In this document: piece by piece, positions 34,668-61,886 of the stretch
Layout: every line of letters begins with the position of its first letter
How positions within the stretch are numbered: the stretch's first letter is position 1
Virus record (IMG/VR): IMGVR_UViG_3300015615_001160
Span: 18,526 to 82,525 of that record
Direction: 5' to 3' (one strand)
Origin: a virus
Taxonomy: Duplodnaviria > Heunggongvirae > Uroviricota > Caudoviricetes
Length of the DNA stretch: 64,000 nucleotides
Notes under the pieces: model-generated
The model's database searches: none
Told to the model about the DNA's origin: nothing
Seen by the model: only the letters and a program-made list of their open reading frames with translations
Translations under genes and position numbers: made by a program

Positions 34668-34743
34668 GGGGGTGACCGTCGGGATTCGCACCCGAATCTT
34701 CTGGTTCACGGCCAGAAACTCTGACTCTTGAGCTACGGCCACA
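34668..34743 (-). tRNA. tRNA-His(GTG)-like
   Basis: Acceptor gtggccg/cggtcac (one G.U); anticodon stem tctgg/ccaga with loop cc-GTG-aa (C33); T-arm tcggg TGCGAAT cccga. Confidence 0.4.
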
Positions 34744-34766
34744 GCTTCTTCCTGTGTTGTGGAAAG

Positions 34767-34843
34767 TGGATCCTCCGGCCGGCGCTGCCCCGGCATGGTC
34801 TTCTTTACGAGAGAAGTGCATTGCTGGCCTCTGCCACGGAGGA
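34767..34843 (-). tRNA. tRNA-Thr(CGT)-like
   Basis: Acceptor tcctccg/cggagga perfect; anticodon stem cttct/agaag with loop cT-CGT-aa; T-arm gccgg GGCAGCG ccggc; T + CCA. Confidence 0.5.
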
Positions 34844-34853
34844 ACGGGATGAA

Positions 34854-34930
34854 TGGTGCTCCCGCGAGGACTTGCACCTCGAGCTTCCGCCTTCGCAGGG
34901 CAGCGTGCAGGACTCTTACACTTCGGGAGC
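34854..34930 (-). tRNA. tRNA-Arg(GCG)-like
   Basis: Acceptor gctcccg/cgggagc; anticodon stem ctgcc/ggcgg with loop cT-GCG-aa; T-arm cgagg TGCAAGT cctcg; A + CCA. Confidence 0.5.
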
Positions 34931-34939
34931 TAATGAAAA

Positions 34940-35014
34940 TGGTGCGCCATGCCGGTGCCGCCCCGGCGCTGTGTCTTTGGAAGAGACGCGTGCTCGCTGT
35001 TACACCAATGACGC
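34940..35014 (-). tRNA. tRNA-Gly(TCC)-like
   Basis: Acceptor gcgtcat/atggcgc; anticodon stem cgtct/agaca with loop cT-TCC-aa; T-arm gccgg GGCGGCA ccggc; A + CCA. Confidence 0.5.
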
Positions 35015-35024
35015 TTTGGAAAAA

Positions 35025-35099
35025 TGGTGGCTGCTTCCGGTATCGCGCCGGACTCCCCTCGGCTTCAGCGAGGTGCTAATCTATCTCAGCTACACAGCC
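35025..35099 (-). tRNA. tRNA-Phe(GAA)-like
   Basis: D-stem gctg/tagc; anticodon stem cctcg/cgagg with loop cT-GAA-gc; T-arm tccgg CGCGATA ccgga; A + CCA. Confidence 0.5.
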
Positions 35100-35153
35100 G
35101 TTCGACAGGCTCACGGCCTGCGGCCCTTCGACGAAGTTTCGTCTTTGGGCAAA
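35100..35153. other. Short non-tRNA spacer with two small hairpins (ggcc tgc ggcc; gacga agtt tcgtc followed by tttggg)
   Basis: It does not fold as a cloverleaf. It may be an intra-array processing or terminator-like element. Confidence 0.3.
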
Positions 35154-35154
35154 G

Positions 35155-35228
35155 TGGTCCCTCCGCGCGGTATCGCGCCGCGGTCTCTCGCTTATCGGGC
35201 GAGGGCTCTGCTTTTGAGCTACGGAGGG
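35155..35228 (-). tRNA. tRNA-Ile(GAT)-like
   Basis: Acceptor ccctccg/cggaggg perfect; D-arm gctc aaaagca gagc; anticodon stem ctcgc/gcgag with loop cc-GAT-aa (C33); T-arm cgcgg CGCGATA ccgcg; A + CCA. Confidence 0.5.
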
Positions 35229-35237
35229 TTTTGGAAA

Positions 35238-35311
35238 TGGTCGCTCGAGGTGGTAACGCTCCACCGTTTGTCGGATGTCGGCCGGCCGTTCTGCTTTTGA
35301 ACTATCGAGCG
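35238..35311 (-). tRNA. tRNA-Val(GAC)-like
   Basis: Acceptor cgctcga/tcgagcg + A + CCA; D-arm gttc aaaagca gaac; loop cc-GAC-at; T-arm ggtgg AGCGTTA ccacc. Paralog of the next unit, with compensatory stem changes. Confidence 0.5.
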
Positions 35312-35322
35312 ATGCGAAAGAA

Positions 35323-35396
35323 TGGTCGCCCGACGTGGTAACGCTCCACGGTCTTCCGGATGTGAGCCGGCCGTTCTCCTTTTGAACTATCAGGCG
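35323..35396 (-). tRNA. tRNA-Val(CAC)-like
   Basis: Acceptor cgcctga/tcgggcg; T-stem cgtgg/ccacg (compensatory relative to ggtgg/ccacc in the previous unit); loop cT-CAC-at. Confidence 0.5.
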
Positions 35397-35409
35397 AAAA
35401 TGAAAATGA

Positions 35410-35481
35410 TACCCGCGCCCGGTAATGCTCCGGGGTTTTCTGATGAAGAATCAGCCGTGCTGACGATTGCACCATGCGGGT
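35410..35481 (-). tRNA. tRNA-like unit, anticodon region ambiguous (possibly CTT)
   Basis: D-stem gtgc/gcac perfect; T-arm cccgg AGCATTA ccggg. The anticodon stem and loop can be drawn two ways (ttCTTca with a 4-bp stem, or a 5-nt loop). Confidence 0.3.
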
Positions 35482-35489
35482 TTTTGAAA

Positions 35490-35564
35490 TGGCTCCTCCC
35501 CTTGGCATCGCACCAAGCTCACACCGCTTAACAGGCGGGCCGCACACTCTGTGCGTTGAGAGGA
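35490..35564 (-). tRNA. tRNA-Asn(GTT)-like
   Basis: Acceptor tcctctc/gggagga; D-stem cgca/tgcg; loop cT-GTT-aa; T-arm cttgg TGCGATG ccaag; G + CCA. Confidence 0.45.
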
Positions 35565-35575
35565 ATGTGTCGTTT

Positions 35576-35650
35576 TACTCCCGGCAGGAGTTGCACCTGC
35601 GTAGTTCCATTTAGAAGATGGATGCCTATGTACTGCTCGGCCACGGGAGC
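35576..35650 (-). tRNA. tRNA-Arg(TCT)-like
   Basis: Anticodon stem tccat/atgga perfect with loop cT-TCT-aa; T-arm gcagg TGCAACT cctgc; no CCA. Confidence 0.45.
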
Positions 35651-35661
35651 GTGGATAGAAA

Positions 35662-35736
35662 GGGTCGCGCGCCTCGGTGCTGCCCCGAGTGTCTCCTCGT
35701 CCCAAGCGAGGCGGGTTGCTGTCTCCCTCGCGCGCG
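35662..35736 (-). tRNA. tRNA-Pro(TGG)-like
   Basis: Acceptor cgcgcgc/gcgcgcg; anticodon stem cctcg/cgagg with loop cT-TGG-ga; T-arm ctcgg GGCAGCA ccgag. Confidence 0.45.
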
Positions 35737-35759
35737 TCACGGTGTCGTGTCGTGTGAAA

Positions 35760-35836
35760 TGGCGGCCTGTGCGGGCTTTGCTCCCGCGCCCTTCCGCTCG
35801 ACAGGCGGCTGCTCTTCGTGGCTGAGCTAACAGGCC
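35760..35836 (-). tRNA. tRNA-Asp(GTC)-like
   Basis: Acceptor ggcctgt/acaggcc perfect; D-stem gctc/gagc; loop cT-GTC-ga; T-arm gcggg AGCAAAG cccgc; G + CCA. Confidence 0.5.
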
Positions 35837-35846
35837 ATGGTGAAAT

Positions 35847-35935
35847 TGGTGGGTTGTGTCGGTAATGCTCCGACGCTGGTCCGGCTGGACATCCGCTTTA
35901 CAGGCGGCTCGCGATCTTTACGTGACTAACAACCC
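35847..35935 (-). tRNA. tRNA-Tyr(GTA)-like, class II
   Basis: Acceptor gggttgt/acaaccc perfect + A + CCA; loop cT-GTA-aa; variable-arm hairpin gtcc agcc ggac; T-arm gtcgg AGCATTA ccgac. Confidence 0.5.
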
Positions 35936-35939
35936 GAAA

Positions 35940-36160
35940 TGGTTGCGGGACGTGGAATGCGTGGCGCGGTAGCGCCGTTGCTGGACGACGCGGAGCGCTG
36001 GCTGCATGGACGCCGGAGCGTCAATCGCACCACGATACGAGGGCGTATGAAACTCTCTTGGTTTTGCCGCTCCGGCGGCTATGCGAAGTGCGCTCCGCGT
36101 CCATGGTGTGAACGTGCTTGCGCGCGAGTGCATTCAACCTTCCCGCGATTGAATGGTGAA
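35940..36160 (-). ncRNA. Structured repeat(s) not resolved as tRNA; includes the paralog of the 34432 element
   Basis: Shares ggagcgctggctgcat...caatcgcacc with 34432-34572. Contains hairpins ggcgc ggta gcgcc and gcgctccg/cggagcgc. Confidence 0.3.
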
Positions 36161-36161
36161 A

Positions 36162-36236
36162 TGGTGGACCGCCACGGCTTTGCACCGTGCTCTTCCGCTT
36201 GCGAGGCGAATGACCTCCTGAATGATCGAGCGGCCC
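36162..36236 (-). tRNA. tRNA-Ala(CGC)-like
   Basis: Acceptor gggccgc/gcggtcc; anticodon stem ttcgc/gcgga with loop cT-CGC-aa; T-arm cacgg TGCAAAG ccgtg; A + CCA. Confidence 0.45.
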
Positions 36237-36244
36237 AGGAAAAT

Positions 36245-36321
36245 TGGTAGCGGGGGCCGGATTTGAACCGGCGAATTGACGGCTTATGAGGCCGTTGCCT
36301 TAACCACTTGGCGACCCCGCA
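36245..36321 (-). tRNA. tRNA-Met(CAT); the most canonical unit (GG in the D-loop, TTCAAAT T-loop), with a 1:72 mismatch (initiator-like)
   Basis: gcggggtcgccaaGTGGTTAAggca acggc cT-CAT-aa gccgt ... gccgg TTCAAAT ccggc ccccgct A CCA. Confidence 0.6.
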
Positions 36322-36333
36322 GTCTGTGGAAAG

Positions 36334-36408
36334 TGGCACAGCGTCTCGGTGCTGCCCCGAGCCCGCGGAGTTTTGGAGACTCTGCTGCGCGAGCTGGCGC
36401 CCGCTGTG
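36334..36408 (-). tRNA. tRNA-like unit (acceptor and T-arm clear; body unresolved)
   Basis: Acceptor cacagcg/cgctgtg; T-arm ctcgg GGCAGCA ccgag. Confidence 0.3.
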
Positions 36409-36426
36409 TTTCACGATTGGAAAAAT

Positions 36427-36500
36427 TGGTGCGGTCAGCCGGACTTGCACCGGCATCCTCTGATTGGCACTCAGACATCCTTCTCTTGAACGATGACCGC
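36427..36500 (-). tRNA. tRNA-Gly(GCC)-like
   Basis: Acceptor gcggtca/tgaccgc perfect + A + CCA; anticodon stem tctga/tcaga with loop gT-GCC-aa; T-arm gccgg TGCAAGT ccggc. Confidence 0.5.
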
Positions 36501-44310: not shown

Positions 44311-44961
44311 ATGAGCAGCTCGAAAACGCCTGTCGTCCTCCTAGTCAGAGTATCCACAGTTCGGCAAGAGACCTCACGCCAGATTTCGGAGTTGGAGGCT
44401 TACGCTGCCAGCAAGGGCTACGAGGTCGTCGAACTGTGCAAGGAGACGATCTCGGGCCGGGCTGACGAGGACGACCGCCACGGGTTGAAGCGAGCCGAAG
44501 CACTCGCCCGCGCTGGAGCGATCAAGAAAGTCCTCGTCCACGAGGTTTCCCGTTTGGCCCGGCGGAACAGCATCACACATCGGTTCGTTGAGGTGTTGGA
44601 GGAATGCGGAGTTTCGCTCTACTGGCACGCGCAGGGGATTGAAACCCTCCTGCCGAGCGGCAAGCGAAACCCAGCAGCGGGCATCATGCTCGCGCTGCTC
44701 GCCGAAATGGCGCGCGGGGAGGTTGAGACGCTGCGGGAGCGGATCAAGTCCGGGTTGGCCGAAGCTCGGCGCAAAGGGGTGAGGCTGGGCAGGCCGGAGG
44801 GCACATCGCTCGACCGGGACATCTTCCTTCAAAAGCACAAGGACATCGCACGATGGCTCAAGGCTGGTCAGTCGATCCGCAACGCTGCCAAGATCACGGG
44901 GAAGGGTATCTCGACGGTGCAGCGCGTGAAGACGGCGCTCGCCGAGCATGCATGCGCATAG
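44311..44961 (+). CDS. Small serine recombinase (resolvase/invertase family)
   Basis: N-terminal VVLLVRVSTVRQ with the catalytic Ser, and a C-terminal HTH. Confidence 0.8.
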   Translation: MSSSKTPVVLLVRVSTVRQETSRQISELEAYAASKGYEVVELCKETISGRADEDDRHGLKRAEALARAGAIKKVLVHEVSRLARRNSITHRFVEVLEECGVSLYWHAQGIETLLPSGKRNPAAGIMLALLAEMARGEVETLRERIKSGLAEARRKGVRLGRPEGTSLDRDIFLQKHKDIARWLKAGQSIRNAAKITGKGISTVQRVKTALAEHACA

Positions 44962-46372: not shown

Positions 46373-47632
46373 ATGAAAGCCAATCGGATAACCCTCAGTG
46401 CGGCCATCATTGCAGTGGTGACATTGCCTTCTAGTGGTGCCAGTGAGCGCGAAACAATGGAAGAGGGGGCGAAGGCAGGAAGCGCTCACGCTCAAGCGTG
46501 GCTCGCGCGGCGCTACTTTTATGGTGATGTGCTGGGTCTTGATCTCAACCGCGCACGCCAGTGGGCCAAGGCCGCTGCGGCTCAGGGAGACCCTCTCGGC
46601 ATCTTCATGTCCGCGCAGTTTGCGGGGAGCAATGACGTGCAAGCCAGTCTCAATGCGAGTGCGGCCTACACTCGGTGCTTGCCCGGATTGAAAGCACTTG
46701 CTGACGAAGGTGATGCCGACGGTCAAGCCGCTCTCGGGTTCCTCTACCTGATGGGGCTCGCGGTTCCGCAGGACGCGAAGGAGGCGTTGAGACTGTTTCG
46801 GGCCGCCGCCGAACAAGGGGATGCCGTAGGCGAAACCTCATTGGCCATGATGTATAGCGATGGTTTAGGCGTCGCAAAAGACTCAGCGGAGTCTTTGAGG
46901 TGGTGGAGAAGAGCTGCTGAGCGAGGGCACGCTTTCGCTCAGACGGCGCTGGGTGTAAGTTATGTGCGCGGCGAAGGCACGCCGCGCAACGTCGAAGAAG
47001 GCGCGCGTTGGCTACGCATGAGTGCAGAGCAGGGCGTCGCGGACGGACAATACGAGCTAGCCTGTTTGTATGATCGAGGATTGCTCCGGTCCAACAACGC
47101 ATTCGCGGTCACCGTTCAACTGCTCGGGATGGCCGCGCGCCAAGGACACGCCAATGCCAAAACGAGGCTTTCACAAATGCTTTCCGCACGGGATGTGGAC
47201 CAACTTATCAGTGGAAACAAAAGTGCGCGAAGTGCCAATGCCACGACCACAGTGCCGAGAGTCAACGTAGGCAAGTCCACGAGCGCGGCTTCGTCGCAAA
47301 CTCGACCTTCGGCACCTACGCCGCAGCCGCTACGACCAGCCAACCCGGACAGCAGTATTCCCCGCGCCGAACCGCGCGCTGATGCCGCCGAGGGACCAAG
47401 CGACGAGGCTGTGCGAAAGAAGCTATCGCTGTTGTTCGGCTCGGGAGCGAGCGAGTTCACAAGTTTCAAACGCGGCACCGTGGTCCAAGGTGCTGGTGGT
47501 CTCATACCCAAGGGAGTGCCAGTCTATCCGATTCGGATCGAAAAGCAGGGACATCCGTTCGACATCTACTTTTTCCAAGACGAGTTCGGCGACTGGAAGT
47601 GCAACCTCAAGGGGACGCGGCTTGTTCAGTGA
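46373..47632 (+). CDS. Sel1-repeat (TPR-like) protein with a signal peptide
   Basis: Multiple Sel1 units (AQ..LG..Y..G.GV..D...A..W...AA.QG) and an N-terminal signal MKANRITLSAAIIAVVTLPSSGA. Confidence 0.75.
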   Translation: MKANRITLSAAIIAVVTLPSSGASERETMEEGAKAGSAHAQAWLARRYFYGDVLGLDLNRARQWAKAAAAQGDPLGIFMSAQFAGSNDVQASLNASAAYTRCLPGLKALADEGDADGQAALGFLYLMGLAVPQDAKEALRLFRAAAEQGDAVGETSLAMMYSDGLGVAKDSAESLRWWRRAAERGHAFAQTALGVSYVRGEGTPRNVEEGARWLRMSAEQGVADGQYELACLYDRGLLRSNNAFAVTVQLLGMAARQGHANAKTRLSQMLSARDVDQLISGNKSARSANATTTVPRVNVGKSTSAASSQTRPSAPTPQPLRPANPDSSIPRAEPRADAAEGPSDEAVRKKLSLLFGSGASEFTSFKRGTVVQGAGGLIPKGVPVYPIRIEKQGHPFDIYFFQDEFGDWKCNLKGTRLVQ

Positions 47633-50261: not shown

Positions 50262-51470
50262 CTAGCTGGCTTGTGACGCCGGGTCATTCACGTCGGTCGC
50301 GGTTCCTGTCAAATTGTTTCCCGCTGGAGCTTCAAAAGGCACGATTTTCGACGTGTTTGGCTCCCACGTTTCAAGAGGTGGGCATTCCACTTTGGCGCTG
50401 CGGGCGTAGGCGCGATGGACGGCTTTGCTGGCGTGTCCGAGGGCTGCTTGGGCGAACCTTTCCGGGTATCCGTTCGCGTAGGCGCGTTCCGCCCACCCGT
50501 ATCGAAAACTGTGGAGGCTGATGCCAGTGATTCGGAGGACCCTGCACCTCCGCCGAAATTCAGAAGAACGGCGGCCAGCGTCTTCGCGAGTGATGATCGG
50601 AAACAGTGCCCCAGTTCTCGGGAGAGTGTGAAGTAACGCTTCGAGGGTTGGACCGATCTTGAGGCGGCATGGCGCGCTGTCGTTCCTCAGTTTTTTTCGG
50701 GAGTAGATCAGCACGCGGTTCGCCCAGTCGATGTTCTCCGCCGTCAGCATAGCGGCGTCGGTCTGGGCGGCCCCAGTCTCCCAAAGCAGTCGGTAATAGG
50801 CGCATCGTTCGGCGTTCTTCTCCGCCGCTACAATCGCCTCGAATTGCTCTCGCGTGATCCCTTTTCTTCTGGTTGCGGGCAATGACGGCCACGCCTTTGG
50901 TGGGAGAATCGGCCCGAGAAGCCATCCGAGATTCAGCGCGAGATTGTGGAAGCGTCGCAGGTAGTTATTCGTGGCGGCTCCGCCGCCTTTGAGGACCGCC
51001 AATAAATCTTCCGCCTCCGTTTCAATGATGACCTTGTCGCGGATCGAATCGAAGCTTCGGCTGGCGGCTGCCCGGCGACTGCGTTCCTGCGATGATTCAC
51101 GCCCATGGCTGGCGAACATCGCGAATGCCTCACTCCATGTCCGTTTCAGCATCTTCGGGTCTTGCGCGGCTAGAAACGCCTTTGCCATCGCTCGGTTCAA
51201 GATTGGCTGCTGGGCCGCCATGTTTTTGGCCACCAAGATGGTTACGCGCACGCGTTCGCCCTTCGCGTTGATCATCGTGAATCGCTTCGACGCCTTCTGC
51301 GCGGCTTCGAGGCCGGCGAAGAACGCCGCTTCCAGCGCGGCCTCGACGAGCCAGACGGCGTGCTCGTGAAAATCGAGGCTGTCGCTCTTGCGGGCATCGA
51401 GCGTTTCGAGTCCGAGGACGTTCTTGGCGATGTCCTCGATGGTCTTGCGGTGGTGCTTGGGCAGGCTCAT
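50262..51470 (-). CDS. Tyrosine site-specific recombinase (phage integrase family)
   Basis: C-terminal catalytic region LHSFRYGWAERAY...LGHASKAVHRAYARS, which supplies the R/H/R/Y residues. Confidence 0.85.
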   Translation of the reverse strand: MSLPKHHRKTIEDIAKNVLGLETLDARKSDSLDFHEHAVWLVEAALEAAFFAGLEAAQKASKRFTMINAKGERVRVTILVAKNMAAQQPILNRAMAKAFLAAQDPKMLKRTWSEAFAMFASHGRESSQERSRRAAASRSFDSIRDKVIIETEAEDLLAVLKGGGAATNNYLRRFHNLALNLGWLLGPILPPKAWPSLPATRRKGITREQFEAIVAAEKNAERCAYYRLLWETGAAQTDAAMLTAENIDWANRVLIYSRKKLRNDSAPCRLKIGPTLEALLHTLPRTGALFPIITREDAGRRSSEFRRRCRVLRITGISLHSFRYGWAERAYANGYPERFAQAALGHASKAVHRAYARSAKVECPPLETWEPNTSKIVPFEAPAGNNLTGTATDVNDPASQAS

Positions 51471-51844
51471 TTCGTGGCTCCTTTCTTCGCGAGCTTCGCG
51501 GCGGCGATTTGCCGCGCTTTGTCAAAGCCGACCCACTTCGCGCTCTCGTCCTGCCCGCGCGCTGCCAGCTCGATGATCGCGAGCGCGTTGAGGTCGAGTT
51601 CGCCGCGGGCGACCGCGGCGAGCGCCGCGCTGCCCATGCATTGAAGCTGCCCGCTCGCTTCGTTTTCGGCGTCAAAATACCCGCCCGCGAGGAACGCTTC
51701 GACGTGGTCTTGGGTCTTGAGGCCGGGCTTCGCGCTCGGCGCTTTTGGCTGGCGTGGAGTGGTTTTCATCGTGGCGACGTGTTCGCTCCACGCCCGAAAA
51801 CCAGCAAGGTAATCACCCCGATTTATCTCCCATTTTGGGTGCAT
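51467..51844 (-). CDS. Hypothetical protein overlapping the integrase start
   Basis: The 4-nt overlap suggests translational coupling with int. An alternative start is MKTTPRQ at 51769. Confidence 0.35.
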   Translation of the reverse strand: MHPKWEINRGDYLAGFRAWSEHVATMKTTPRQPKAPSAKPGLKTQDHVEAFLAGGYFDAENEASGQLQCMGSAALAAVARGELDLNALAIIELAARGQDESAKWVGFDKARQIAAAKLAKKGATK

Positions 51845-51910
51845 TGATGCGCGAAGTGGCGCAGATGTTGATTAGTTGGCCGACCAGATCGCCCGGACTT
51901 TCTTTCCCGA

Positions 51911-54900
51911 TTGAAGCAGGCGTCTGTATGGTTCTCGCCCGTATGGCCACTTCCGATGGAAATAATCGACAACATCAACCACCTGCTCGGCGATAGCCTG
52001 AAGCAGACGATCACGCCGGGGGCGAAGCTCAAGATCGCCGCGTCGTGTTTTTCGATTTACGCGTTTGAAGCGCTCAAGGCCGAGCTGGAGAAAATCGAGT
52101 CGCTCCATTTCATTTTCACCTCGCCGACGTTCGTGCCCGGCGATGTCACCGACAAGGTCAAGAAGGAGCACCGCGAATTTCATATTCCGAAGCTCGAACG
52201 CGAGCGGAGTCTTTACGGCAGCGAGTTCGAGGTTCGGCTCCGCAATGAACTGACGCAAAAGGCTATCGCCAAAGAGTGCGCGACGTGGATGCGAGACAAG
52301 GCGGTTTTTCGCTCGAATCGCGGGTGCGCCCCGATGCAGCAGTTCGCGGGTGTCAGCGCGGACGGCAAAGAGTCCGTCTATCTCCCGCTTCACGGATTCA
52401 CGGCCGTCGATCTCGGCTACGAGAAGGGCAACGCCATCTCGAACTTCGTGAATCGAATGGACGAGCAGCCGCTCACCACGACCTACCTCTCGCTGTTCGA
52501 TCAAATCTGGAACGACCCGGAGAAGCTGGAGGACGTGACCGCGAAGCTCTGCGAGCACATCGCGTCCGTGTATCAGGAGAACTCGCCGGAGCGCATCTAC
52601 TTCCTGATGCTCTACAACATCTTCAGCGAGTTTCTGGAGGACATCAGCGCGGACGTGCTGCCGAACGACCGCACCGGCTACCAGGACAGCCTCGTTTGGA
52701 AGAAGCTCTACAACTTCCAGCGCGACGCGGCGACGGGCGTGATCAACAAGCTGGAGACTTACAACGGCTGCATCCTTGCCGACAGCGTGGGCCTCGGGAA
52801 GACGTTCACCGCGCTGGCCGTGGTGAAATACTACGAGCTGCGAAACAAGTCGGTGCTCGTCCTCTGCCCGAAGAAGCTGGCCGACAACTGGCTCACTTAC
52901 AAAGGCAACCTCGTCACGAACATCTTCGCCAAAGACCGCTTCGGCTACGACGTGCTCTGCCACACCGATCTCCTCCGCGAGAGCGGTTACTCGTTCGGCA
53001 TGGCGCTCAATCGCGTGAACTGGGGCAACTACGACCTCGTCGTCATCGATGAGTCGCACAATTTCCGCAACAACACGGCGTTCGAGGATCGCGAGACGCG
53101 GTATCAGCGCCTGCTGAACCAAGTAGTCCGGCAGGGCGTGAAAACGAAAGTGCTCATGCTCTCGGCGACCCCGGTGAATAATCGCTTCACCGACCTGCGG
53201 AATCAGCTTGCGCTCGCCTACGAGGGCGACCCGGAAAACCTGAGCGCGAAGCTGAAATCGAAGAAGACGATTGATGAAATCTTCCGGCGCGCACAGACGG
53301 CGTTCAACGCATGGTCGCTGCTCCCCGCCGAGCAGCGCACCGCCGCAGCCATCCTCGATGCGCTCGACTTCGATTTCTTCGAGGTGCTCGACAGCGTGAC
53401 GATTGCGCGCTCGCGCCGACACATCCAGACCTACTACGACACGAAGGACATCGGCACCTTCCCTGAGCGATTGAAGCCGCTGTCCTTCCACTGCCAGCTC
53501 ACTCACCGCAAGGACGTCATCGGCTTCAACGAAATCTTCGCGCGCCTGAGTATGCTCACGCTCGCAGTGTATGCGCCGTTGAGCTACGTGCAGCCGAGCC
53601 GGTTGCGGAAATACGAAGAGCTTTACGATCCGGGCGATGAGATCGGTCACGGCAACCTCGGGCAGTCAGGACGCGAGAAGGGCATCCAGGCCCTGATGAC
53701 CGTGAACCTGCTCAAGCGCCTCGAAAGCTCCGTGCATTCGTTCCGCCTCACGCTCCAGAGTCTTGCGGACAATCACGAGCGCACGCTGGCGAAAATCGCC
53801 GCGTTCAAGAAGACCGGTCGCGACGCCACGTTTGCCGATGTCTCGCCTGCTTTCGCCGACGTGGAGCCGGAGGACGACGACGAAATTCCCGATCCGGACG
53901 ACGCGCAGATTGGGAGCAACGTGCAGATCAATCTCTCCGACATGGATCTCCCGCGCTGGGAGCACGAACTGCGCGCCGACCTCGCCATCATCGAAGCATT
54001 GCTCGCCGAGATGCGGAAGATTACGCCCTCTGACGACGCGAAGCTCCAGCACATCAAGACGACGATCCTCAGCAAACTGGCGTCGCCCATCAATTTGGCG
54101 AACAAGAAAGTCCTGGTGTTCACCGCCTTCGCCGACACTGCGGATTACCTCTATGAGCATCTCGCGCCGTTCTTCCTCGAAAAGGCAGGGCTTCAATCCG
54201 GCAAGGTCACGGGTGCGGGCAGCCCGAAGAGCACGCTGAAAAAGAGCTACGACTTCCAGTCGTTGCTCACGCTGTTTTCTCCACGCTCAAAGGAGAAAGC
54301 GGCCATTCTGCCCAAAGAGCCCGGCGAGATTGATCTACTCATCGGCACCGACTGCATTTCCGAGGGGCAGAACCTCCAGGACTGCGACTACCTCATCAAC
54401 TACGACATCCACTGGAACCCCGTCCGCATCATCCAGCGCTTCGGGCGCATCGACCGCATCGGCTCGCAGAACCGCTGCATCCAGCTCGTGAACTACTGGC
54501 CGGACATCACGCTCGACGAATACATCAACCTCAAGGAGCGCGTCGAAAGCCGCATGGTCATCGCCGACGTCACTGCCACGGGCGACGACAATCCCCTCGA
54601 CGCCAAGGCCAATGATGTCGCCTACCGTCGCGAGCAGCTTCGCCGTCTTCAGGAGGAAGTCATCGAACTGGAAGACCTCAAGACCGGCATCTCCATCACC
54701 GATCTCGGCTTGAACGATTTCCGCATGGACTTGGTGAACTACGTGAAAACGCACAGCGACCTCGCCAGCCTGCCAAACGGAATGCACGCCGTTGTCCCTG
54801 CGGCTCCCGAACGCGGCCTCGTCCCCGGCGTCATCTTCGCCCTGCGGAATCGCAACGACGGCGTGAACATCAACCAGCAGAACCGCCTGCACCCCTACTA

Positions 54901-55240
54901 CCTCGTCTATGTCGCGCAGGACGGTAGCGTCGTCGTCAACCACACTGACGCCAAGCGCCTCCTCGATCTTGCCCGCGCCGCTTGCAAAGACCGCAGCGAA
55001 CCAATCACGGAGGTCTATCAGCCGTTCAATCTCGCCACGAAGGACGGACGCCGCATGGACGCATATTCCGCGCTGTTGCAAAAGGGCATCCAGTCCATGA
55101 TCGCGCTGAAGGAGGAGAAGGACATTGATAGTCTCTTCAGCGGCGGCCCCGGCGGCAAGACCACCGCGTTGTTGAACACGATCACCGGCCTTGGCGACTT
55201 CGAGTTGATCGCCTTCCTCGTGGTGCAGCCCCGCGCATGA
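51911..55240 (+). CDS. SNF2/RAD54-family helicase
   Basis: DSVGLGKTFTALAV (motif I), VVIDESHNFRN (motif II), LMLSATPVNNRF, LIGTDCISEGQNLQDCDYLINYDIHWNPVRIIQRFGRIDRIGS (motifs V-VI). Confidence 0.85.
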   Translation: MKQASVWFSPVWPLPMEIIDNINHLLGDSLKQTITPGAKLKIAASCFSIYAFEALKAELEKIESLHFIFTSPTFVPGDVTDKVKKEHREFHIPKLERERSLYGSEFEVRLRNELTQKAIAKECATWMRDKAVFRSNRGCAPMQQFAGVSADGKESVYLPLHGFTAVDLGYEKGNAISNFVNRMDEQPLTTTYLSLFDQIWNDPEKLEDVTAKLCEHIASVYQENSPERIYFLMLYNIFSEFLEDISADVLPNDRTGYQDSLVWKKLYNFQRDAATGVINKLETYNGCILADSVGLGKTFTALAVVKYYELRNKSVLVLCPKKLADNWLTYKGNLVTNIFAKDRFGYDVLCHTDLLRESGYSFGMALNRVNWGNYDLVVIDESHNFRNNTAFEDRETRYQRLLNQVVRQGVKTKVLMLSATPVNNRFTDLRNQLALAYEGDPENLSAKLKSKKTIDEIFRRAQTAFNAWSLLPAEQRTAAAILDALDFDFFEVLDSVTIARSRRHIQTYYDTKDIGTFPERLKPLSFHCQLTHRKDVIGFNEIFARLSMLTLAVYAPLSYVQPSRLRKYEELYDPGDEIGHGNLGQSGREKGIQALMTVNLLKRLESSVHSFRLTLQSLADNHERTLAKIAAFKKTGRDATFADVSPAFADVEPEDDDEIPDPDDAQIGSNVQINLSDMDLPRWEHELRADLAIIEALLAEMRKITPSDDAKLQHIKTTILSKLASPINLANKKVLVFTAFADTADYLYEHLAPFFLEKAGLQSGKVTGAGSPKSTLKKSYDFQSLLTLFSPRSKEKAAILPKEPGEIDLLIGTDCISEGQNLQDCDYLINYDIHWNPVRIIQRFGRIDRIGSQNRCIQLVNYWPDITLDEYINLKERVESRMVIADVTATGDDNPLDAKANDVAYRREQLRRLQEEVIELEDLKTGISITDLGLNDFRMDLVNYVKTHSDLASLPNGMHAVVPAAPERGLVPGVIFALRNRNDGVNINQQNRLHPYYLVYVAQDGSVVVNHTDAKRLLDLARAACKDRSEPITEVYQPFNLATKDGRRMDAYSALLQKGIQSMIALKEEKDIDSLFSGGPGGKTTALLNTITGLGDFELIAFLVVQPRA

Positions 55241-55246
55241 TTCCCC

Positions 55247-55903
55247 ATGTTCGCTTACCCGAAACAAGCCGAATTCAATCGCGTGGTTCCGAAGAACAAG
55301 ATCTACGCGCACGCAAAAGCGTCGAAGCGCGTCCGGGAATTGTTTGTGGCCGAGGTCGGAGAGATTCTCTGGAAATACAAACTCTCCCCGGAAACGATCA
55401 ACCTCCCGGCGCGCCACGGCATCACCGAGATTCAGGTTTTTGAAATTGCCCTCAAAACTCCCGCACTCGACGAGGTGGTGATTCAGGCGATGGACAAGGC
55501 TATTCCGTTTCCGCTGCTCTTCCACTTCATCCACGGTGGTCAGGTTCGCTTCGCCGCCTCCTACAAGCGGCCCAGCGATGCGGATTCGTCGAAGTGGGTC
55601 ATCGAGGCGAGCTTTCAGACCGAGCCACAGCCGCTCGCAGCCGAGCGCCCGCCGCTGCCTGTCGCGCTCGATCTCGCCAGTCTCTACGAACAGATTGTCC
55701 GCTGCCACATCCCGCTCTCTCCGCGCACGGGCGAAAGCCTCGGGGAGCAGGTCACCCGCTACCGCGCGATTCAGTCGAAGCAGCACGAGCAGCGGCAGCT
55801 TGAGGCGCGGCTCGAAAAAGAAATTCAATTCAACCGCAAGGTGGAACTAAATGCGATTTTGCGTTCGGTCTCGAATGATCTCCGGACTTTGAACAAGATT
55901 TAA
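55247..55903 (+). CDS. DUF4391-like protein
   Basis: A 218-aa protein immediately downstream of the SNF2 gene, with gene order typical of SNF2-DUF4391 defence modules. Confidence 0.45.
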   Translation: MFAYPKQAEFNRVVPKNKIYAHAKASKRVRELFVAEVGEILWKYKLSPETINLPARHGITEIQVFEIALKTPALDEVVIQAMDKAIPFPLLFHFIHGGQVRFAASYKRPSDADSSKWVIEASFQTEPQPLAAERPPLPVALDLASLYEQIVRCHIPLSPRTGESLGEQVTRYRAIQSKQHEQRQLEARLEKEIQFNRKVELNAILRSVSNDLRTLNKI

Positions 55904-55912
55904 GACGACTCG

Positions 55913-56974
55913 ATGAACATCACAATTCACACGCAACTTCCCGCCTGTCCGAAGGCGGATACACTCGACCAGACAATCTCCATTCTATCATCGAGCCAGC
56001 AGTGGGAGCAGTTGTCTGTGGCGGTCGCTTATTCGTCGTTGGCGGGGGTCGCTCGGCTCCACGAGGTTGTGTATACGGCTCACCCCGACGCATCATTTCG
56101 TTGGCTGCTTGGTCTCGACGACTATGTGACCCAGCCGGGTGCAATCGACTTCTGTTGTTCGATCAAGAACGCAGATGTGCGGGTGTATTCGTCCAAGCGT
56201 CCGAATACACGCTTTCATCCAAAAGTGCTGCTTTTTGATGCTCCCAAAAAGGGGGCGGTATCATCGATGCTAATCGGTTCAGCCAACTTGACCTTTGCAG
56301 CACTGAACCGAAACTGCGAGGCAGTCGCGGTCATCGAAGCGCAGCGCCGAGCGGAGCGAATGGTGATGCGCGCCCGCTTCGAATCACTCTGGTCTTTGGG
56401 CGCCGCGCCCACTGGAAAGACCTTGTCAGATTACAAGCAGCAATTTGAAAAGCTCCGAAAATCGCGGTCGTTTCTCTTGGACGTGGAGTCTGAGCCACCT
56501 GCAACGCCAAAAACTATACTGCATTCTGACTCGGCTCAGATCAATCCGGGAACCGCCACTGTATGCTGGATTGAAGTCGGCAAGAACACTGCGATGGGCA
56601 GAGAGCTTGAAGTAAAAGGAGAGCAAGCGTGGTTCTTTGGACTTGAACCCACTGGTGGCACTGCCGCTTTCCGTGATTTCCTTGTCTCCAGCGGAGACAC
56701 AGTGCCATTGCGCTTAAAGTATCAGGGCAATGCGATGTGGCGCTTACAACTGCGCGCAGGAGTTCCAGAGGTCGATGCAGGGCTTCGACCGGTAATCAAC
56801 GGAAAACTTGGCAGAAGTCCATATGTGGCTGTTTTTAAGCGGACGCAAACCAAAGGCCTGTTCACGCTTTCGTTCCCGCGGCGAGATTCAAGAGCATTTG
56901 AAGCTATCCGTAAACAGTCAGAGAAAACCGGGACGATTGGGAGCACCGCTGCCCGCGAATATGGCTGGTATTGA
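55913..56974 (+). CDS. PLD-family (HKD) nuclease, NgoFVII/Nuc-like
   Basis: RFHPKVLLFD........MLIGSANLT is a single HxK(x4)D(x6)GSxN motif. Confidence 0.7.
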   Translation: MNITIHTQLPACPKADTLDQTISILSSSQQWEQLSVAVAYSSLAGVARLHEVVYTAHPDASFRWLLGLDDYVTQPGAIDFCCSIKNADVRVYSSKRPNTRFHPKVLLFDAPKKGAVSSMLIGSANLTFAALNRNCEAVAVIEAQRRAERMVMRARFESLWSLGAAPTGKTLSDYKQQFEKLRKSRSFLLDVESEPPATPKTILHSDSAQINPGTATVCWIEVGKNTAMGRELEVKGEQAWFFGLEPTGGTAAFRDFLVSSGDTVPLRLKYQGNAMWRLQLRAGVPEVDAGLRPVINGKLGRSPYVAVFKRTQTKGLFTLSFPRRDSRAFEAIRKQSEKTGTIGSTAAREYGWY

Positions 56975-58853
56975 ACTGATTGGCATGACTAAACTCAAAC
57001 TCCACACCACTGACGGCATCAAGGAGCAGGCAAGCAGGCTTGCCGCTCTATTCCCCCAATGCATCACCGAGGCAAAAAATGCGGATGGTGAAATTGTCGC
57101 GGCACTAGATTTCGACCTGCTTCGCCAAGAACTATCATCTGTCATCGTTGATGGCCCGTCCGAACGATATGGCTTAAATTGGCCGGGGAAGCGGGAATCG
57201 CTGATTACCGCAAATCTACCTGTGGCAAAGACCCTGCGACCGTCTCGGGCAGAAAGCATTGATTTTGAGACTACGCGCAACCTCTTTATCGAAGGTGACA
57301 ATCTCGATGGACTCAAGCTCCTCCAAGAGACTTTCCTCAATCGAATCAAAGTCATCTGCATCGATCCTCCCTACAACACAGGCCACGATTTTCTCTATGA
57401 GGACGACTTCGCTGAGGATGTCGCAAGTTACTTGGAAAAGAGCAATCAGAAGGACGAGGCTGGCAGTCGGCTTGTTACGAACGCCGAATCAAACGGACGT
57501 TTTCATTCGGACTGGCTTTCGATGATCTATCCGCGACTCCGATTGGCGCGTAACCTACTACGAGATGATGGTGTCATCTTTATTACGATCTCTGACGTAG
57601 AGGTGGGGAACCTTAGGAAGGTGTGCGACGAGGTCTTCGGAGAAGGAAATTTTGTTGCGAACATTGTTTGGCAAAAAAAATATACGCGCGCGAATGACGC
57701 GAAATGGTTTTCCGACAACCATGACCACGTCCTTTGTTTTGCGAGAGACAAAGCCAGTCTTCGACTGAACAGCCTTCCGCGGAACGAGGAACAACTTAGT
57801 GCCTATTCAAACCCGGATAATCATCCCAAGGGCCGATGGAAAGCCACTCCACTCCACGCGAAGAGCGGAACAAACACTAATGCCTACATATTCCGCAATG
57901 GCGTTACGTGGACGCCGCCCGCTGGGACTTTCCGTCGTTTTAATGACGAGTCGATGCGGACAATGGATGAGGGCAACGAGATTTGGTTCGGTTCGGACGG
58001 GAAGCAAATCCCAAGCAGGAAGAGCTTTCTTAGTGAAATCAAAGATGGGGTCGTGCCAGTAACCATCTGGCCCTACGAGGAAGTCGGACACAATCACGAA
58101 GCTAACAACGAACTTAAGGAGTTGGGGCTAAACGGCGTGTTTGATAATCCCAAGCCATCGCGATTGTTCAAACGAGCCATTTATTTGGCGAGTTCAGCGG
58201 AGAAGGATGATATCATTCTCGATTTCTTTGCAGGCTCATCCACAACGGCGAGTGCGGTGATGTCGCTGAACGCAGAGGATGGTGGAACACGGCGCTTTAT
58301 CATGATGCAATTGCCGGAACCGTGCGATCAGGCTTCGGAGGCATTTAAGGCGGGATTCACTTCAATCGTTGAGGTTAGCAAGGAGCGCATTCGTCGTGCA
58401 GGGGCAAAAGTCAAAGCGGCCAACGCCACCACTGCACCGCGTCTTGATACTGGTTTCCGTGTCCTGAAGATCGACACATCAAACATGGCGGACGTATATT
58501 ACGCGCCGGACGCGGTTAAGCAGGCCGACCTCGTGGCGCACACGGACAACATCAAACCGGATCGCACGCCGGAAGACCTGCTCTTTCAAGTGCTGGTGGA
58601 TTGGGGCGTGGACTTGTCCTTGCCCATCACGCAGGAGACCATCGCCGGAAAGATGGTCTTCTTCGTGGATGGGAACGCCCTTGCCGCCTGCTTCGACCCG
58701 AAGGTGAGCGAAGACCTTGTGAAGGAACTAGCGAAGCGCAAGCCGTTGCGTGCCGTCTTCCGCGACAGCAGCTACGACAGCGACAGTGTGAAGATCAACG
58801 TGGAGCAAATCTTCAAGCTCCTCAGCCCCGAGACCGAAGTGAAGTCGCTGTAG
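56961..58853 (+). CDS. mod: Type III-like adenine-specific DNA methyltransferase (Mod)
   Basis: VICIDPPYNTGHDF (DPPY motif IV) and ILDFFAGSSTTASAV (motif I). The start overlaps the PLD stop; an alternative start is at 56988. Confidence 0.8.
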   Translation: MAGIELIGMTKLKLHTTDGIKEQASRLAALFPQCITEAKNADGEIVAALDFDLLRQELSSVIVDGPSERYGLNWPGKRESLITANLPVAKTLRPSRAESIDFETTRNLFIEGDNLDGLKLLQETFLNRIKVICIDPPYNTGHDFLYEDDFAEDVASYLEKSNQKDEAGSRLVTNAESNGRFHSDWLSMIYPRLRLARNLLRDDGVIFITISDVEVGNLRKVCDEVFGEGNFVANIVWQKKYTRANDAKWFSDNHDHVLCFARDKASLRLNSLPRNEEQLSAYSNPDNHPKGRWKATPLHAKSGTNTNAYIFRNGVTWTPPAGTFRRFNDESMRTMDEGNEIWFGSDGKQIPSRKSFLSEIKDGVVPVTIWPYEEVGHNHEANNELKELGLNGVFDNPKPSRLFKRAIYLASSAEKDDIILDFFAGSSTTASAVMSLNAEDGGTRRFIMMQLPEPCDQASEAFKAGFTSIVEVSKERIRRAGAKVKAANATTAPRLDTGFRVLKIDTSNMADVYYAPDAVKQADLVAHTDNIKPDRTPEDLLFQVLVDWGVDLSLPITQETIAGKMVFFVDGNALAACFDPKVSEDLVKELAKRKPLRAVFRDSSYDSDSVKINVEQIFKLLSPETEVKSL

Positions 58854-58856
58854 CCC

Positions 58857-61800
58857 ATGAAGCTGAAATTCAAACAGCAGGCATTCCAGACAGACGCCGT
58901 GAAGGCGGTGGTGGATTGCTTCGCCGGACAGCCGAAGAGCACCGGCTCCAAGTATGCGATTGACCGTGGACACGAGGACGCTGGGGGCCAGCAGATGCTC
59001 CGCAGCGTGGACGCGGACGGTTTTGCCAATGCAAACCTCGGGATCGCGCCCAAGCAGCTTTTGGAGAATGTGCAGACGGTGCAGCGACGGCAGGGACTGC
59101 CCGTTGCTCCCGAGCTGGTGGTCTCGTCCGTAAGCAAGGTGAACCTCGACATCGAGATGGAGACGGGGACGGGCAAGACCTACTGCTACATCAAAACGAT
59201 GTTCGAGCTGAACCGTGACTACGGATGGAGCAAGTTCATCGTGGTGGTGCCGAGCATCGCCATCCGCGAAGGGGTGCTGAAGTCCTTCGAGATCATGGCG
59301 GAACACTTCCACGAGGAATACAAAAAGAAGGCGCGGTATTTCGTCTATAACTCGAAGCAGCTTCACAATCTGGAGAGCTTCTCGTCGGACGCTGGGATCA
59401 ACGTGATGATTATCAACGTGCAGGCATTCAACGCGCGCGGCGAGGACGCGCGACGCATCTACCTGGAGTTGGATGATTTTCAGTCACGCCGACCGATTGA
59501 CGTCATCAAGAAGAACCGGCCCATCCTCGTCCTCGACGAGCCGCAGAAGATGGAGGGCAAGGCCACGACGGAGAAGCTGACGGAGTTCGACCCGCTGATG
59601 ATCCTGCGCTACTCCGCCACGCACAAGACAGAGCACAACAAGGTGTATCGGCTCGATGCGATTGACGCCTACAACCAGAAGCTCGTGAAGAAGATCGCCG
59701 TGCGCGGCATCACGGTGCGCGGGTTGGCTGGGACGAACGCCTACCTTTACCTCGAAGGCATCCGCATCGCGACGACCAAGCCGCCGGAAGCCCGCGCGGA
59801 ACTGGAAATCCAGCAGAAGAGCGGCATCAAGCGCGTGCTGCGTATGCTGCGGAAGAACGACAATCTGCACGACCTGTCCGACGGGCTGGAGCAGTATCGC
59901 GGCTTCGTGGTGTCGGACATCAACGCCATCGAGAACACGATCAGCTTCACTAACGGCGTGGTGCTCGGCGCTGGCGAGGCTACGGGGGATGTGAACGAAT
60001 CCGCCCTGCGGCGCATCCAGATCCGCGAGGCAATCAAAGCGCACTTCGAAAAGGAGAAGGCGCTCTTTGCCCAAGGAGTGAAGGTGCTCTCACTGTTCTT
60101 TATTGATGAGGTCGCGAAGTATCGCAGCTACGACGAGGCCGGTGAAGTCGCGGGCGAATACGCGCAGATGTTCGAGGAGGAATACAACAGCCAGCTTAAT
60201 GAGGTGCTGACGCTGGAGGACACGCCCTACAACCGCTACCTGCGCGGCATCACTGCCACCAAGACGCACAACGGCTACTTCTCCATTGATAAGAAAACGA
60301 AGCGACTGGTGAACCCGGACGTGAAGACTCGTGGCGAATCCGCCGGGGAGGCCGACGACGTGGACGCCTACGATCTCATTTTGAAAGACAAGGAACGGCT
60401 GCTGACCTTCGCCGAGCCGGTGCGGTTCCTATTTTCCCACTCGGCGCTGCGCGAAGGCTGGGACAACTCGAATGTCTTCGTGATCTGCACGCTCAAGCAC
60501 AGCGACAACACGATTTCGCGCAGGCAGGAAGTCGGGCGCGGGATGCGCTTGGCGCGCAACCAGAGCGGAGATCGGATCGACGACCCTGCCATCGTGCATC
60601 AGGTGAACGTGCTCACGGTCGTGGCCAACGAGAGCTACAAGGACTTCGTGGCCGGACTGCAAAAGGACATCAGCGCCTCGCTCTCCGCACGCCCGAAGCA
60701 GGCCAACGCTGAGTATTTCCAAGACAAGGTGCTCAAGACGCCAACCGGCGACGTGAAGGTGACGCCACAGTTGGCGAAGCTGATCGAGCGATACCTCGTG
60801 AAGAACGACTACTCGGACACGGACGAGCGGATCACTGAGGAGTATCACGCTGCAAAGAAGGAAGGCACGCTCGCGGCTTTGCCTGCCGAACTGGAGCCGT
60901 TAAAAGAGCAGGTCTTCCAACTGATCGACAGCGTCTTCAGCACCGCCCAGCTTCCTGAGATCGAGGACGACCGAAAGGGCAAGGTGAACCCGCTCAATGC
61001 GAACTTCGAGAAGCGGGAGTTCCAAGAGCTATGGAGCCGGATCAACCGCAAGGCCATCTACGCGGTGGATTTTCAAACCAGTGAGCTGATCGAGAAGTGC
61101 ATCGCGGCGCTCGACAAGGAACTCAAGGTGACGCCGCTCCAATACACGGTGACCGCTGGCGAGCAGACCGAGGAAGCAACCTACGATGCGGTGAAGAAAG
61201 GCGAGGCGTTTGTGGTGAAAGAAAACGAAACGGATCATCTGACGAGTTCAGCGCGTTCCGCTGTGAAGTATGACCTCATCGGCAAACTGGCGGAGGACAC
61301 TCAACTCACGCGCCATACCGTCGCGACCATCCTGCAAGGCATCAACGTCGCTGTCTTTGCCCAATACAAAACGAATCCCGAGGACTTCATCCTCAAAGCG
61401 GGCACGCTGATCAACGAGCAGAAGGCCACTGTGATCGTCGAGCACCTCGCCTACAACCCGGTGGAGGACACGCACAGCACCGACATTTTCACCCAGCAGA
61501 AGAAGGAAGACCTCAGCCGGGGTTTCCGTGCGACTCGACACATCTACGACTACGTCTTCACCGATTCGACGAACGAGCGAACCTTCGTCGGCGAACTGGA
61601 TGCCAGCAGCGAAGTGGTCGTCTATGCGAAGCTGCCCAAGAGCTTTCACATCCCAACGCCTGTCGGAAACTACAACCCCGATTGGGCCATCGCCTTCGAA
61701 GCCGGCAAGGTGAAGCACGTCTATTTCATCGCGGAGACGAAAGGCTCAATGTCCTCGATGGACTTGCGGAAGATCGAGGAATCCAAGATCGAATGCGCCC

Positions 61801-61886
61801 GGAAGTTCTTCAGCAAAATCACGTCCGACAAAGTGAAATATGAGGTGGTGAACAGTTACGGGAAGCTGATGGAACTGGTGAAATAG
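58857..61886 (+). CDS. res: Type III restriction enzyme Res subunit (SF2 helicase-nuclease)
   Basis: [17 protein letters not shown] (Walker A) and LVLDEPQKM (DExx). About 1,009 aa, located 3 nt after the Mod stop. Confidence 0.85.

Follow-up and report, generated by a model that had tools for sequence, protein, structure and literature searches.

A conserved SNF2-DUF4391-Mod-Res cassette with an accessory PLD-family nuclease gene in a Caudoviricetes virus record

Introduction

A 64,000-nucleotide stretch of an IMG/VR virus record assigned to Caudoviricetes (Duplodnaviria; Heunggongvirae; Uroviricota), positions 18,526 to 82,525 of IMGVR_UViG_3300015615_001160, encompasses a compact run of five genes encoding an SNF2-family ATPase, a DUF4391 protein, a PLD/HKD-family nuclease, and the Mod and Res subunits of a Type III restriction-modification (R-M) system. 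This stretch, at its full length, is hereafter called the window. An initial reading of the nucleotide sequence, made without database searches (hereafter, the original prediction), described the run as a hybrid or variant DISARM-like and Type III system located next to an integrase gene.

Type III R-M enzymes are regarded as two-subunit machines, with the mechanism worked out on EcoP1I and EcoP15I. In enzymes of the EcoP15I type, a Mod dimer recognizes a short, asymmetric sequence, of which it methylates one strand, and ATP drives the switch of the Mod-bound Res subunit to a sliding state. Cleavage occurs when two complexes from inversely oriented, unmethylated sites meet.

Here, we report a comparative genomic analysis of the five-gene locus, with an emphasis on a four-gene cassette that is widespread in bacteria, on the facultative PLD gene, and on the relationship of both to DISARM.

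Results

The locus consists of five tightly spaced genes

The five genes lie on the plus strand in five separate open reading frames (ORFs) (Table 1), co-directional as originally predicted but not literally “fused”, as they were also described. The original domain assignments were upheld for all five proteins by profile searches (Pfam, PADLOC and NCBIfam), with all four families DUF4391, PLDc_2, ResIII and N6_N4_Mtase matched, and the catalytic motifs of the SNF2, PLD, Mod and Res proteins are all intact.

For two genes, comparison with homologs changes the start. Every homolog of the SNF2 protein begins at MEIIDN, which corresponds to M16 of the listed ORF; the true start is almost certainly the ATG at 51956, not the listed TTG at 51911. 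The Mod gene starts at the ATG at 56985 (M60 of the listed ORF), not at 56808, and all homologs as well as the PADLOC model begin at this methionine. With the SNF2 and Mod starts thus corrected, no genes overlap, and the intergenic gaps are 6, 9, 10 and 3 nucleotides (nt). The genes had been described as “tightly packed or overlapping”; the tight packing (3-10 nt) stands, whereas the overlap disappears. This spacing is the pattern of a single operon. A scan for sigma-70 promoters and terminators gave results no better than those for shuffled sequence. A 592-amino-acid (aa) antisense ORF (51872-53650) was rejected as a gene, being a shadow ORF within the SNF2 gene.

Table 1. Features of the locus and its surroundings, in window coordinates
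Feature	Coordinates	Strand	Size and basis of assignment
SNF2-family ATPase/translocase	51956-55240	+	1094 aa counted from M16; Pfam, PADLOC, motifs
DUF4391 protein	55247-55903	+	218 aa; Pfam PF14335
PLD/HKD-family nuclease	55913-56974	+	353 aa; PLDc_2, RE_NgoFVII N-terminal PLD domain
Type III Mod subunit	56985-58853	+	622 aa; N6_N4_Mtase, PADLOC MTase_III
Type III Res subunit	58857-61886	+	1009 aa; ResIII, DEAD, RE_endonuc, PADLOC REase_III
Tyrosine integrase with DUF6900 N-terminus	50262-51470	-	Phage_integrase E 1e-10, DUF6900 E 4.5e-19
ORF preceding the integrase	51467-51844	-	125 aa; ORF layout
Serine recombinase/resolvase, upstream of the integrase	44311-44961	+	
Sel1-repeat protein, upstream of the integrase	46373-47632	+	
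RtcB RNA ligase	26871-28307	-	E 3.5e-87

SNF2, DUF4391, Mod and Res form a conserved, mobile cassette

To identify related loci, one genome per prokaryotic species was scanned with a DUF4391 protein alignment, which yielded 80 loci, 67 of them with a full DUF4391 gene; all 80 were then searched by tblastn with the five proteins of the locus. Within the DUF4391 subfamily sampled in this way, SNF2 was present in 58 of the 58 full-DUF4391 loci with enough upstream sequence and Mod in 58 of the 58 with enough downstream sequence, with both Mod and Res found in 45 of 45. The order SNF2-DUF4391-Mod-Res, on one strand, is invariant across the counted genome loci, the hosts of which belong to Verrucomicrobiota, Acidobacteriota, Beta-, Gamma- and Deltaproteobacteria, Planctomycetota, and Bacillota. 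Conversely, no SNF2-DUF4391 pair without mod and res was seen at any locus with enough flanking sequence. The gene content of this lineage does not match that of a Type III system consisting of mod and res only: in 45/45 to 58/58 loci, the mod-res genes are found in the company of SNF2 and DUF4391.

Across these loci, SNF2, Res and DUF4391 vary in concert in their identity to the proteins of the window (r 0.87-0.94). For Mod, the correlation is low (r 0.3-0.4), as would be expected if the specificity domain were shuffled.

The four genes are also found on plasmids of Escherichia coli (IncFIB), Citrobacter, Acinetobacter sp. NEB149, Mycolicibacterium, Desulforapulum, and Leuconostoc, the last with a DUF4391 protein only ~27% identical to that of the locus, as well as on plasmids of Shewanella, Enterococcus faecium and Bacillus cereus, where Res is ~34-35% identical to the locus Res. 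The E. coli version of the cassette occurs in 10 of 5426 complete E. coli genomes. SNF2-DUF4391-Mod-Res is thus a conserved, horizontally mobile four-gene cassette that is widespread in bacteria. The phyletic spread and invariant order of the cassette run counter to the original prediction of a hybrid or variant DISARM-like system, as do two further observations detailed below: the DrmD and DrmC cut-offs are missed, and PLD is not part of the core.

Several decayed copies of the cassette were also encountered (L038, L023, L075-L080), with an internal deletion or frameshifts in SNF2 or a truncated DUF4391 gene.

DUF4391 is the signature gene of the cassette

The DUF4391 protein matches Pfam family PF14335 over nearly the full length of the model (positions 1-230 of 232; E 3.8e-53; 181.2 bits, cut-off 29.9). 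In a confident AlphaFold2 model of this protein (pLDDT, the predicted local distance difference test score, 90.6), residues 1-155 form an alpha/beta domain, and residues 165-217 form an antiparallel helical hairpin at the C-terminus. A Foldseek comparison of this model with the PDB produced no match below E 0.2, no sequence relatives with a solved structure were found, and no catalytic motif was detected in the protein.

DUF4391 proteins form 1410 clusters at 50% identity in a library of 1.8 billion proteins, and nearly all are stand-alone proteins of ~220 aa; within the four-gene cassette, DUF4391 serves as the signature gene. The nearest relatives are Chthoniobacterales/Verrucomicrobiota metagenome-assembled genomes. 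Two longer proteins were considered and dismissed as functional clues: one in which the N-terminal half of SNF2 is fused to DUF4391 (P0396) looks like the product of an internal deletion, as in the decayed locus L038, and in another (P0420), the 500-aa extension of DUF4391 is unannotated and is not Mod. Some public DUF4391 records (P0050, P0196) are labeled “methyl-accepting chemotaxis protein”, which looks like a propagated misannotation.

The SNF2 protein has a conserved N-terminal domain of its own

The SNF2 protein matches the Pfam families SNF2-rel_dom, Helicase_C and ResIII and retains the motifs GLGKT (279), DESH (365) and QRFGRIDRIG (827). The helicase core is preceded by a highly conserved N-terminal domain of ~260 aa (22 homologs aligned) and followed by a C-terminal extension of ~250 aa. 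Among PADLOC models, the best match is C3a139 “HKD+Snf2” (PDLC01075; E 2.6e-122). Residues 195-1105 align to positions 163-947 of this 948-position model, so that the helicase core and the C-terminal region are shared, whereas the “HKD” part (positions 1-162) does not align to the SNF2 protein. The C3a139 family was recorded only as a gene in the vicinity of type III CRISPR-cas loci, in a 2018 list (Shah et al. 2018, PMC6546367) that gives no tie to Type III R-M or DUF4391.

The PADLOC name, along with some resemblance, suggested that the N-terminal domain might be an inactivated PLD domain. The searches lent no support to this possibility: in the alignment of 22 homologs, there is no conserved HxK motif, and the domain has neither a Pfam match nor a PDB profile match.

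Mod and Res belong to a distinct Type III lineage

Mod is a beta-class N6-adenine DNA methyltransferase with a target-recognition domain (N6_N4_Mtase, E 4e-33) and contains the motifs DPPY (127) and FAGS (415). Res combines a superfamily 2 (SF2) helicase-like ATPase with a C-terminal PD-(D/E)XK endonuclease (RE_endonuc, E 2e-34) and retains the motifs GTGKT (104), DEPQ (227) and PD...ETK (941-962). Both proteins match the respective PADLOC models over the full length (MTase_III, E 8e-226; REase_III, E 0, 1094 bits), which confirms that the Type III Mod/Res pair is real. The Res score against NCBIfam PRK15483 (389 bits) is under the cut-off of 564, and this Res therefore belongs to a subfamily other than StyLTI.

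The locus has much in common with canonical Type III R-M systems (EcoP1I, EcoP15I, StyLTI; Mod2Res1-2), in which mod is likewise directly upstream of res, the beta-class Mod carries DPPY and FxGS motifs, and Res consists of SF2 and PD-(D/E)XK domains. The canonical systems, however, comprise only two genes, whereas the lineage of the locus adds upstream SNF2 and DUF4391 genes and, in this case, also PLD. The Res proteins of canonical, two-gene EcoP1/P15-type systems are more distant from the locus Res than those of the plasmid cassettes, with ~32% identity across 55% of the length. Mod shares only ~50-60% identity with its homologs, including those cases in which SNF2 and Res reach ~90%, a pattern expected of specificity-domain shuffling.

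PLD is a facultative gene that adjoins methyltransferase genes

The PLD protein scores above the cut-offs for PLDc_2 (36.7 bits, cut-off 27) and the RE_NgoFVII N-terminal PLD domain (26.5 bits, cut-off 23.8), and its family profile matches the PLD domain of the Type IV enzyme SauUSI (7clg; E 6e-15). The motifs HPKVLLFD (102) and GSAN (122) are intact, and both are invariant in 17 homologs. In the same homologs, a C-terminal domain of ~150 aa is nearly invariant and more conserved than the catalytic domain; for the C-terminal 174 aa, there was no Pfam match at E<=10 and no PDB profile match. PLD-type restriction nucleases (BfiI, the R-subunit of NgoFVII/NgoAVII, and the N-terminal domain of SauUSI) similarly have one HKD motif per chain. 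The BfiI/NgoFVII-type enzymes possess a C-terminal B3-like DNA-binding domain, whereas the C-terminus of the locus PLD matches no known DNA-binding domain by sequence. In addition, the PLD gene has its place within Type III/SNF2 operons and is not the partner of a Type II methyltransferase. The exception is an Elusimicrobiales contig (L093, 6218-11038) that encodes an N6_N4_Mtase (347 aa), an Eco57I-like N6_Mtase (918 aa) and then a PLD homolog; no Res or SNF2 match was found within 10 kb by tblastn, and none by Pfam on the neighboring ORFs. In this contig, PLD may be the sole restriction nuclease.

Among the genome loci, PLD occupies the slot between DUF4391 and Mod in one of 67 (L005), and it was also found there in the metagenomic locus L092 and probably in L112; distant relatives are located in the Mod-Res slot of two other loci (L001, L002). 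PLD is thus a facultative accessory gene and not a component of the cassette core. Our first reading, that it is a random passenger, was nevertheless rejected, given that its homologs consistently adjoin methyltransferase genes in SNF2/Type III operons. The family includes 211 homologs of ~350 aa, and in every arrangement seen among these, PLD is directly beside a methyltransferase (MTase) gene: SNF2-PLD-Mod-Res, SNF2-Mod-PLD-Res, DUF4391-PLD-Mod, Mod-PLD-Res, PLD-Mod...Res, and MTase-MTase-PLD.

The PLD gene also appears to share its history with part of the Mod gene. Among the window-type cassettes, Mod proteins at least 75% identical to the locus Mod are confined to those that carry PLD (L005, L092 and L112; identities of 85%, 82% and 75%), and the others are ~50-62% identical. 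The G+C content at third codon positions (GC3) is 0.565 in PLD and 0.54-0.57 in the N-terminal and target-recognition parts of Mod, compared with 0.81-0.84 in SNF2 and Res. In the simplest reading, the low GC3 of both genes, together with the high Mod identity confined to PLD-bearing loci, suggests that a block consisting of PLD and the N-terminal/target-recognition region of Mod recombined into an SNF2/DUF4391/Res backbone.

A sister cassette and the relationship to DISARM

The most common context of PLD is a different cassette, HTH_17 - DrmD-like SNF2 (957 aa) - PLD - Mod (562 aa) - Res (911 aa), which was identified in eight loci (L088-L091, L095, L100, L103, L116), for example, in Noviherbaspirillum humi and Paraburkholderia sp. 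SUR17, and for which we found no published name. The PLD of this sister cassette belongs to the same family as the locus PLD (43-49% identical over the full length), and the logic of the two loci is the same: SNF2, PLD adjoining Mod, and a Type III-like Res. The other proteins, however, come from different lineages, with SNF2 only 24% identical to that of the locus and Res barely alignable; DUF4391 is absent, and PLD holds its position. The sister SNF2 matches PADLOC DrmD with E 7e-198 and NCBIfam DrmD_b with 668 bits, under the cut-off of 950, and the sister Res partially matches the NCBIfam “BPTD_3080 family restriction endonuclease”.

Class 1 DISARM (DrmD, DrmMI, DrmA, DrmB, DrmC) shares with the locus the combination of SNF2, an adenine methyltransferase and PLD in one operon as well as the discrimination of self from non-self by methylation. 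The locus differs in having a Type III Res and DUF4391, which is no DISARM component, instead of DrmA/DrmB, and in that PLD is optional. The absence of DrmA/DrmB (DUF1998) noted in the original prediction was confirmed: with the B. cereus DrmA/DrmB pair as queries, tblastn detected no match in the window at E<0.9 and none within 10 kb in the 80 related genome loci, and none of the five locus proteins gave a DrmA or DUF1998 profile match above noise. Matches to the remaining DISARM components are weak. SNF2 reaches only E 1e-33 with the PADLOC DrmD models and scores 139 bits against NCBIfam DrmD NF038317 (cut-off 610) and 103 bits against NF038318 (cut-off 950); PLD scores 27.5 bits against NCBIfam DrmC NF038319 (cut-off 133) and E 5e-5 or weaker against the PADLOC DrmC models.

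A direct junction between the two systems exists on a B. cereus plasmid (NZ_AP022858.1, 195907-209649; L120, L123), where the genes drmA - DUF1998 (drmB) - SNF2 - DUF4391 - Mod - Res follow one another in one direction. This is the only case seen of a DISARM core joined to the DUF4391 cassette, and it may be a natural composite. Thus, the originally noted resemblance to DISARM extends to the PLD family, through its association with a DrmD-like SNF2 in the sister cassette, and to this single plasmid, but not to the identity of the locus, which can be grouped loosely with DISARM among methylation-based SNF2/PLD systems but is not DISARM.

Variable slots between the cassette genes

Each of the three junctions of the cassette is either tight or filled with inserted genes. 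The cargo of these slots includes PIN toxins, four-helix-bundle proteins, AlbA_2-type proteins, DUF1016 nucleases, Fic, HipA, RhuM, HicAB, and AAA+RloB-like pairs. From these insertions, it follows that the cassette is a scaffold that gathers other defense and toxin genes; Type I operons likewise collect such genes. In a Citrobacter plasmid (L082, 9680-12972), an OLD-like ATP-dependent endonuclease and a DUF2130 protein are encoded between DUF4391 and Mod, with a WYL regulator upstream, and a metagenomic contig (L125, 847-11009) carries a SIR2 and HerA (DUF87) pair in the same slot; both insertions are known defense modules in complete form.

Genomic surroundings

The integrase gene originally reported next to the locus is real and is divergent from the operon (Table 1); it is genomic context rather than part of the defense system. 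No convincing flanking direct repeats that would mark att sites or island borders were found around the integrase and the operon. The region from 26 to 62 kb of the window is lower in G+C than its flanks. Near the recombinase and Sel1-repeat genes upstream of the integrase, several ORFs of 257-414 aa had no Pfam match.

Beside the RtcB gene, 15 tRNA genes, nearly all on the minus strand, are located at 29374-36500 within a lower-G+C stretch; RtcB tRNA repair and spare tRNAs look like mobile-element cargo against anticodon nucleases. A giant single ORF (54-25841, plus strand; 8595 aa) encodes passenger-associated-transport (PATR, autotransporter-type) repeats. This stretch has a G+C content of 0.66-0.69, a GC3 of 0.90 and a strong negative GC skew, which fits a Verrucomicrobiota-like host.

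Discussion

The gene content of the locus, its intact motifs, the strict co-occurrence and co-divergence of the cassette genes, and the mosaic structure are all direct observations. We lean, with slightly better than even confidence, toward reading the locus as an intact phage-defense operon, namely, a Type III R-M system extended by an accessory motor module and, optionally, by a second nuclease; the specific role proposed for SNF2 is held much less firmly.

We infer every physical interaction and activity in this proposed system from the protein sequences and their genomic contexts. By analogy with EcoP15I, Mod would mark host sites and provide sequence recognition, and Res would bind Mod and cut unmethylated foreign DNA. 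Comparative genomics suggests that, for this Res/Mod lineage, SNF2 and DUF4391 are obligate partners, which would form the accessory motor module. DUF4391, with its coiled-coil hairpin and no catalytic signature, is probably an adaptor to the Mod-Res complex, whereas SNF2 would be a double-stranded DNA translocase that extends, licenses or protects restriction, for instance, by clearing bound proteins or by lessening the dependence of cleavage on two head-to-head sites. PLD would be a second, metal-independent nuclease functionally tied to Mod and, given the single HKD motif per chain, is probably a homodimer with one active site.

A stronger form of this proposal, to which we attach a rather low probability, is that SNF2 and DUF4391 join Mod and Res as true third and fourth subunits of an ATP-dependent restriction enzyme, one that represents a distinct and ancient class. 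In such an enzyme, a translocase of the chromatin-remodeler type would be coupled to Mod-Res via the DUF4391 adaptor and would change the licensing of cleavage, so that two head-to-head sites would no longer be required or phage proteins protecting the DNA would be stripped. PLD would then be an alternative, Mod-docking nuclease common to two unrelated SNF2/Type III lineages.

Several considerations weigh against the extended R-M interpretation. The genome loci were retrieved via peptide patterns of close DUF4391 relatives, and the 58/58 counts accordingly describe that subfamily, with the more distant cases of the cassette coming from about a dozen plasmids. The physical link of SNF2 and DUF4391 to Mod and Res is one that we infer. 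Res and Mod appear fully able to function by themselves, and SNF2-DUF4391 could be a separate, tightly linked system; a small Enterococcus faecalis plasmid carries a Mod-Res pair of the same lineage with neither SNF2 nor DUF4391, showing that the pair can persist alone. The slots accept unrelated cargo (PIN, Fic, HipA, DUF1016, AlbA_2, OLD-like, SIR2-HerA), and adjacency alone is therefore no proof of shared function. Finally, the joint import of PLD and Mod could be mere hitch-hiking of neighbors.

Taken to its conclusion, this line of argument yields two or three independent systems in a defense island, that is, a Type III R-M pair, SNF2 with DUF4391, and a stand-alone PLD, which share an operon and horizontal transfer. 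Such independence would fit with Mod and Res carrying every motif for autonomous Type III activity, with the plasmid that has Mod-Res alone, with the tolerance of unrelated cargo, including a complete SIR2-HerA system, between cassette members, and with the listing of the SNF2 family among the neighbors of type III CRISPR loci, as is typical of genes that merely share an island. We consider it improbable, however, because the same co-occurrence, order and orientation are observed in 45/45 to 58/58 loci across phyla, down to ~35% Res identity, because SNF2, DUF4391 and Res diverge together (r 0.87-0.94), and because SNF2-DUF4391 was never seen without mod and res where enough flank was available.

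Less probable still, in our estimation, is a guard module, in which SNF2-DUF4391, PLD or both would be kept silent by Mod-Res and set free upon inhibition of the restriction enzyme by a phage. A precedent is PrrC, which is encoded within the EcoprrI Type I operon, and the location within an R-M operon, the characteristic back-up toxins found in the slots (PIN, HipA, Fic and AAA+RloB-like pairs), and the constant adjacency of PLD to a methyltransferase gene are all compatible with this scheme. But SNF2 and DUF4391 contain no toxin-like or effector domain, the N-terminal domain of SNF2 lacks an HKD motif, and universality and co-divergence across an entire R-M lineage are not expected of a guard. 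Least probable of all is a DISARM variant that kept DrmD, DrmC and DrmMI and swapped the DrmA/DrmB sensor-helicase for a Type III Res: the weak DrmD and DrmC matches, the DrmD-like SNF2 that usually adjoins PLD homologs, and the drmA and DUF1998 genes directly upstream of the B. cereus plasmid cassette speak for it, but the defining DrmA/DrmB core is absent from the window and, within 10 kb, from all 80 related genome loci, SNF2, PLD and even the sister-cassette SNF2 fall short of the family cut-offs, PLD is missing from nearly all DUF4391 cassettes, and DUF4391 is foreign to DISARM.

In a literature search with subscription journals mostly outside coverage, no published description of the SNF2-DUF4391-Mod-Res cassette was found, and the four-gene core appears never to have been named or studied. 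Searches on SNF2 with Type III and on COG numbers returned nothing relevant; DUF4391 surfaced only as one bare list entry and one typo for DUF7941, and no mention of PF14335 was found. ARMADA/YprA helicase systems and HmaA were considered as matches for the locus and set aside, the published accounts describing different systems. PADLOC 2.0 and NCBIfam release 20 contain no DUF4391 model, and in RefSeq/NCBI, the two proteins are named “helicase-related protein” (SNF2) and “DUF4391 domain-containing protein”.

As a methylation-based restriction system, the locus does not embody a new principle; it is a widespread, apparently unstudied and clonable extension of Type III restriction. The analysis points to joint inheritance of mod-res with an SNF2 ATPase and DUF4391 throughout a large and phylogenetically broad lineage, and DUF4391 is plasmid-borne in clinical Enterobacterales, Acinetobacter, Listeria, and Enterococcus. 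With its three cargo slots, the cassette is also useful for finding further defense systems. If the four proteins do cooperate, they would constitute a new sub-class of restriction enzymes and give DUF4391 a function, and the cassette would offer a simple, clonable model for the role of the SNF2 motor in DISARM, BREX, Dpd and ARMADA.

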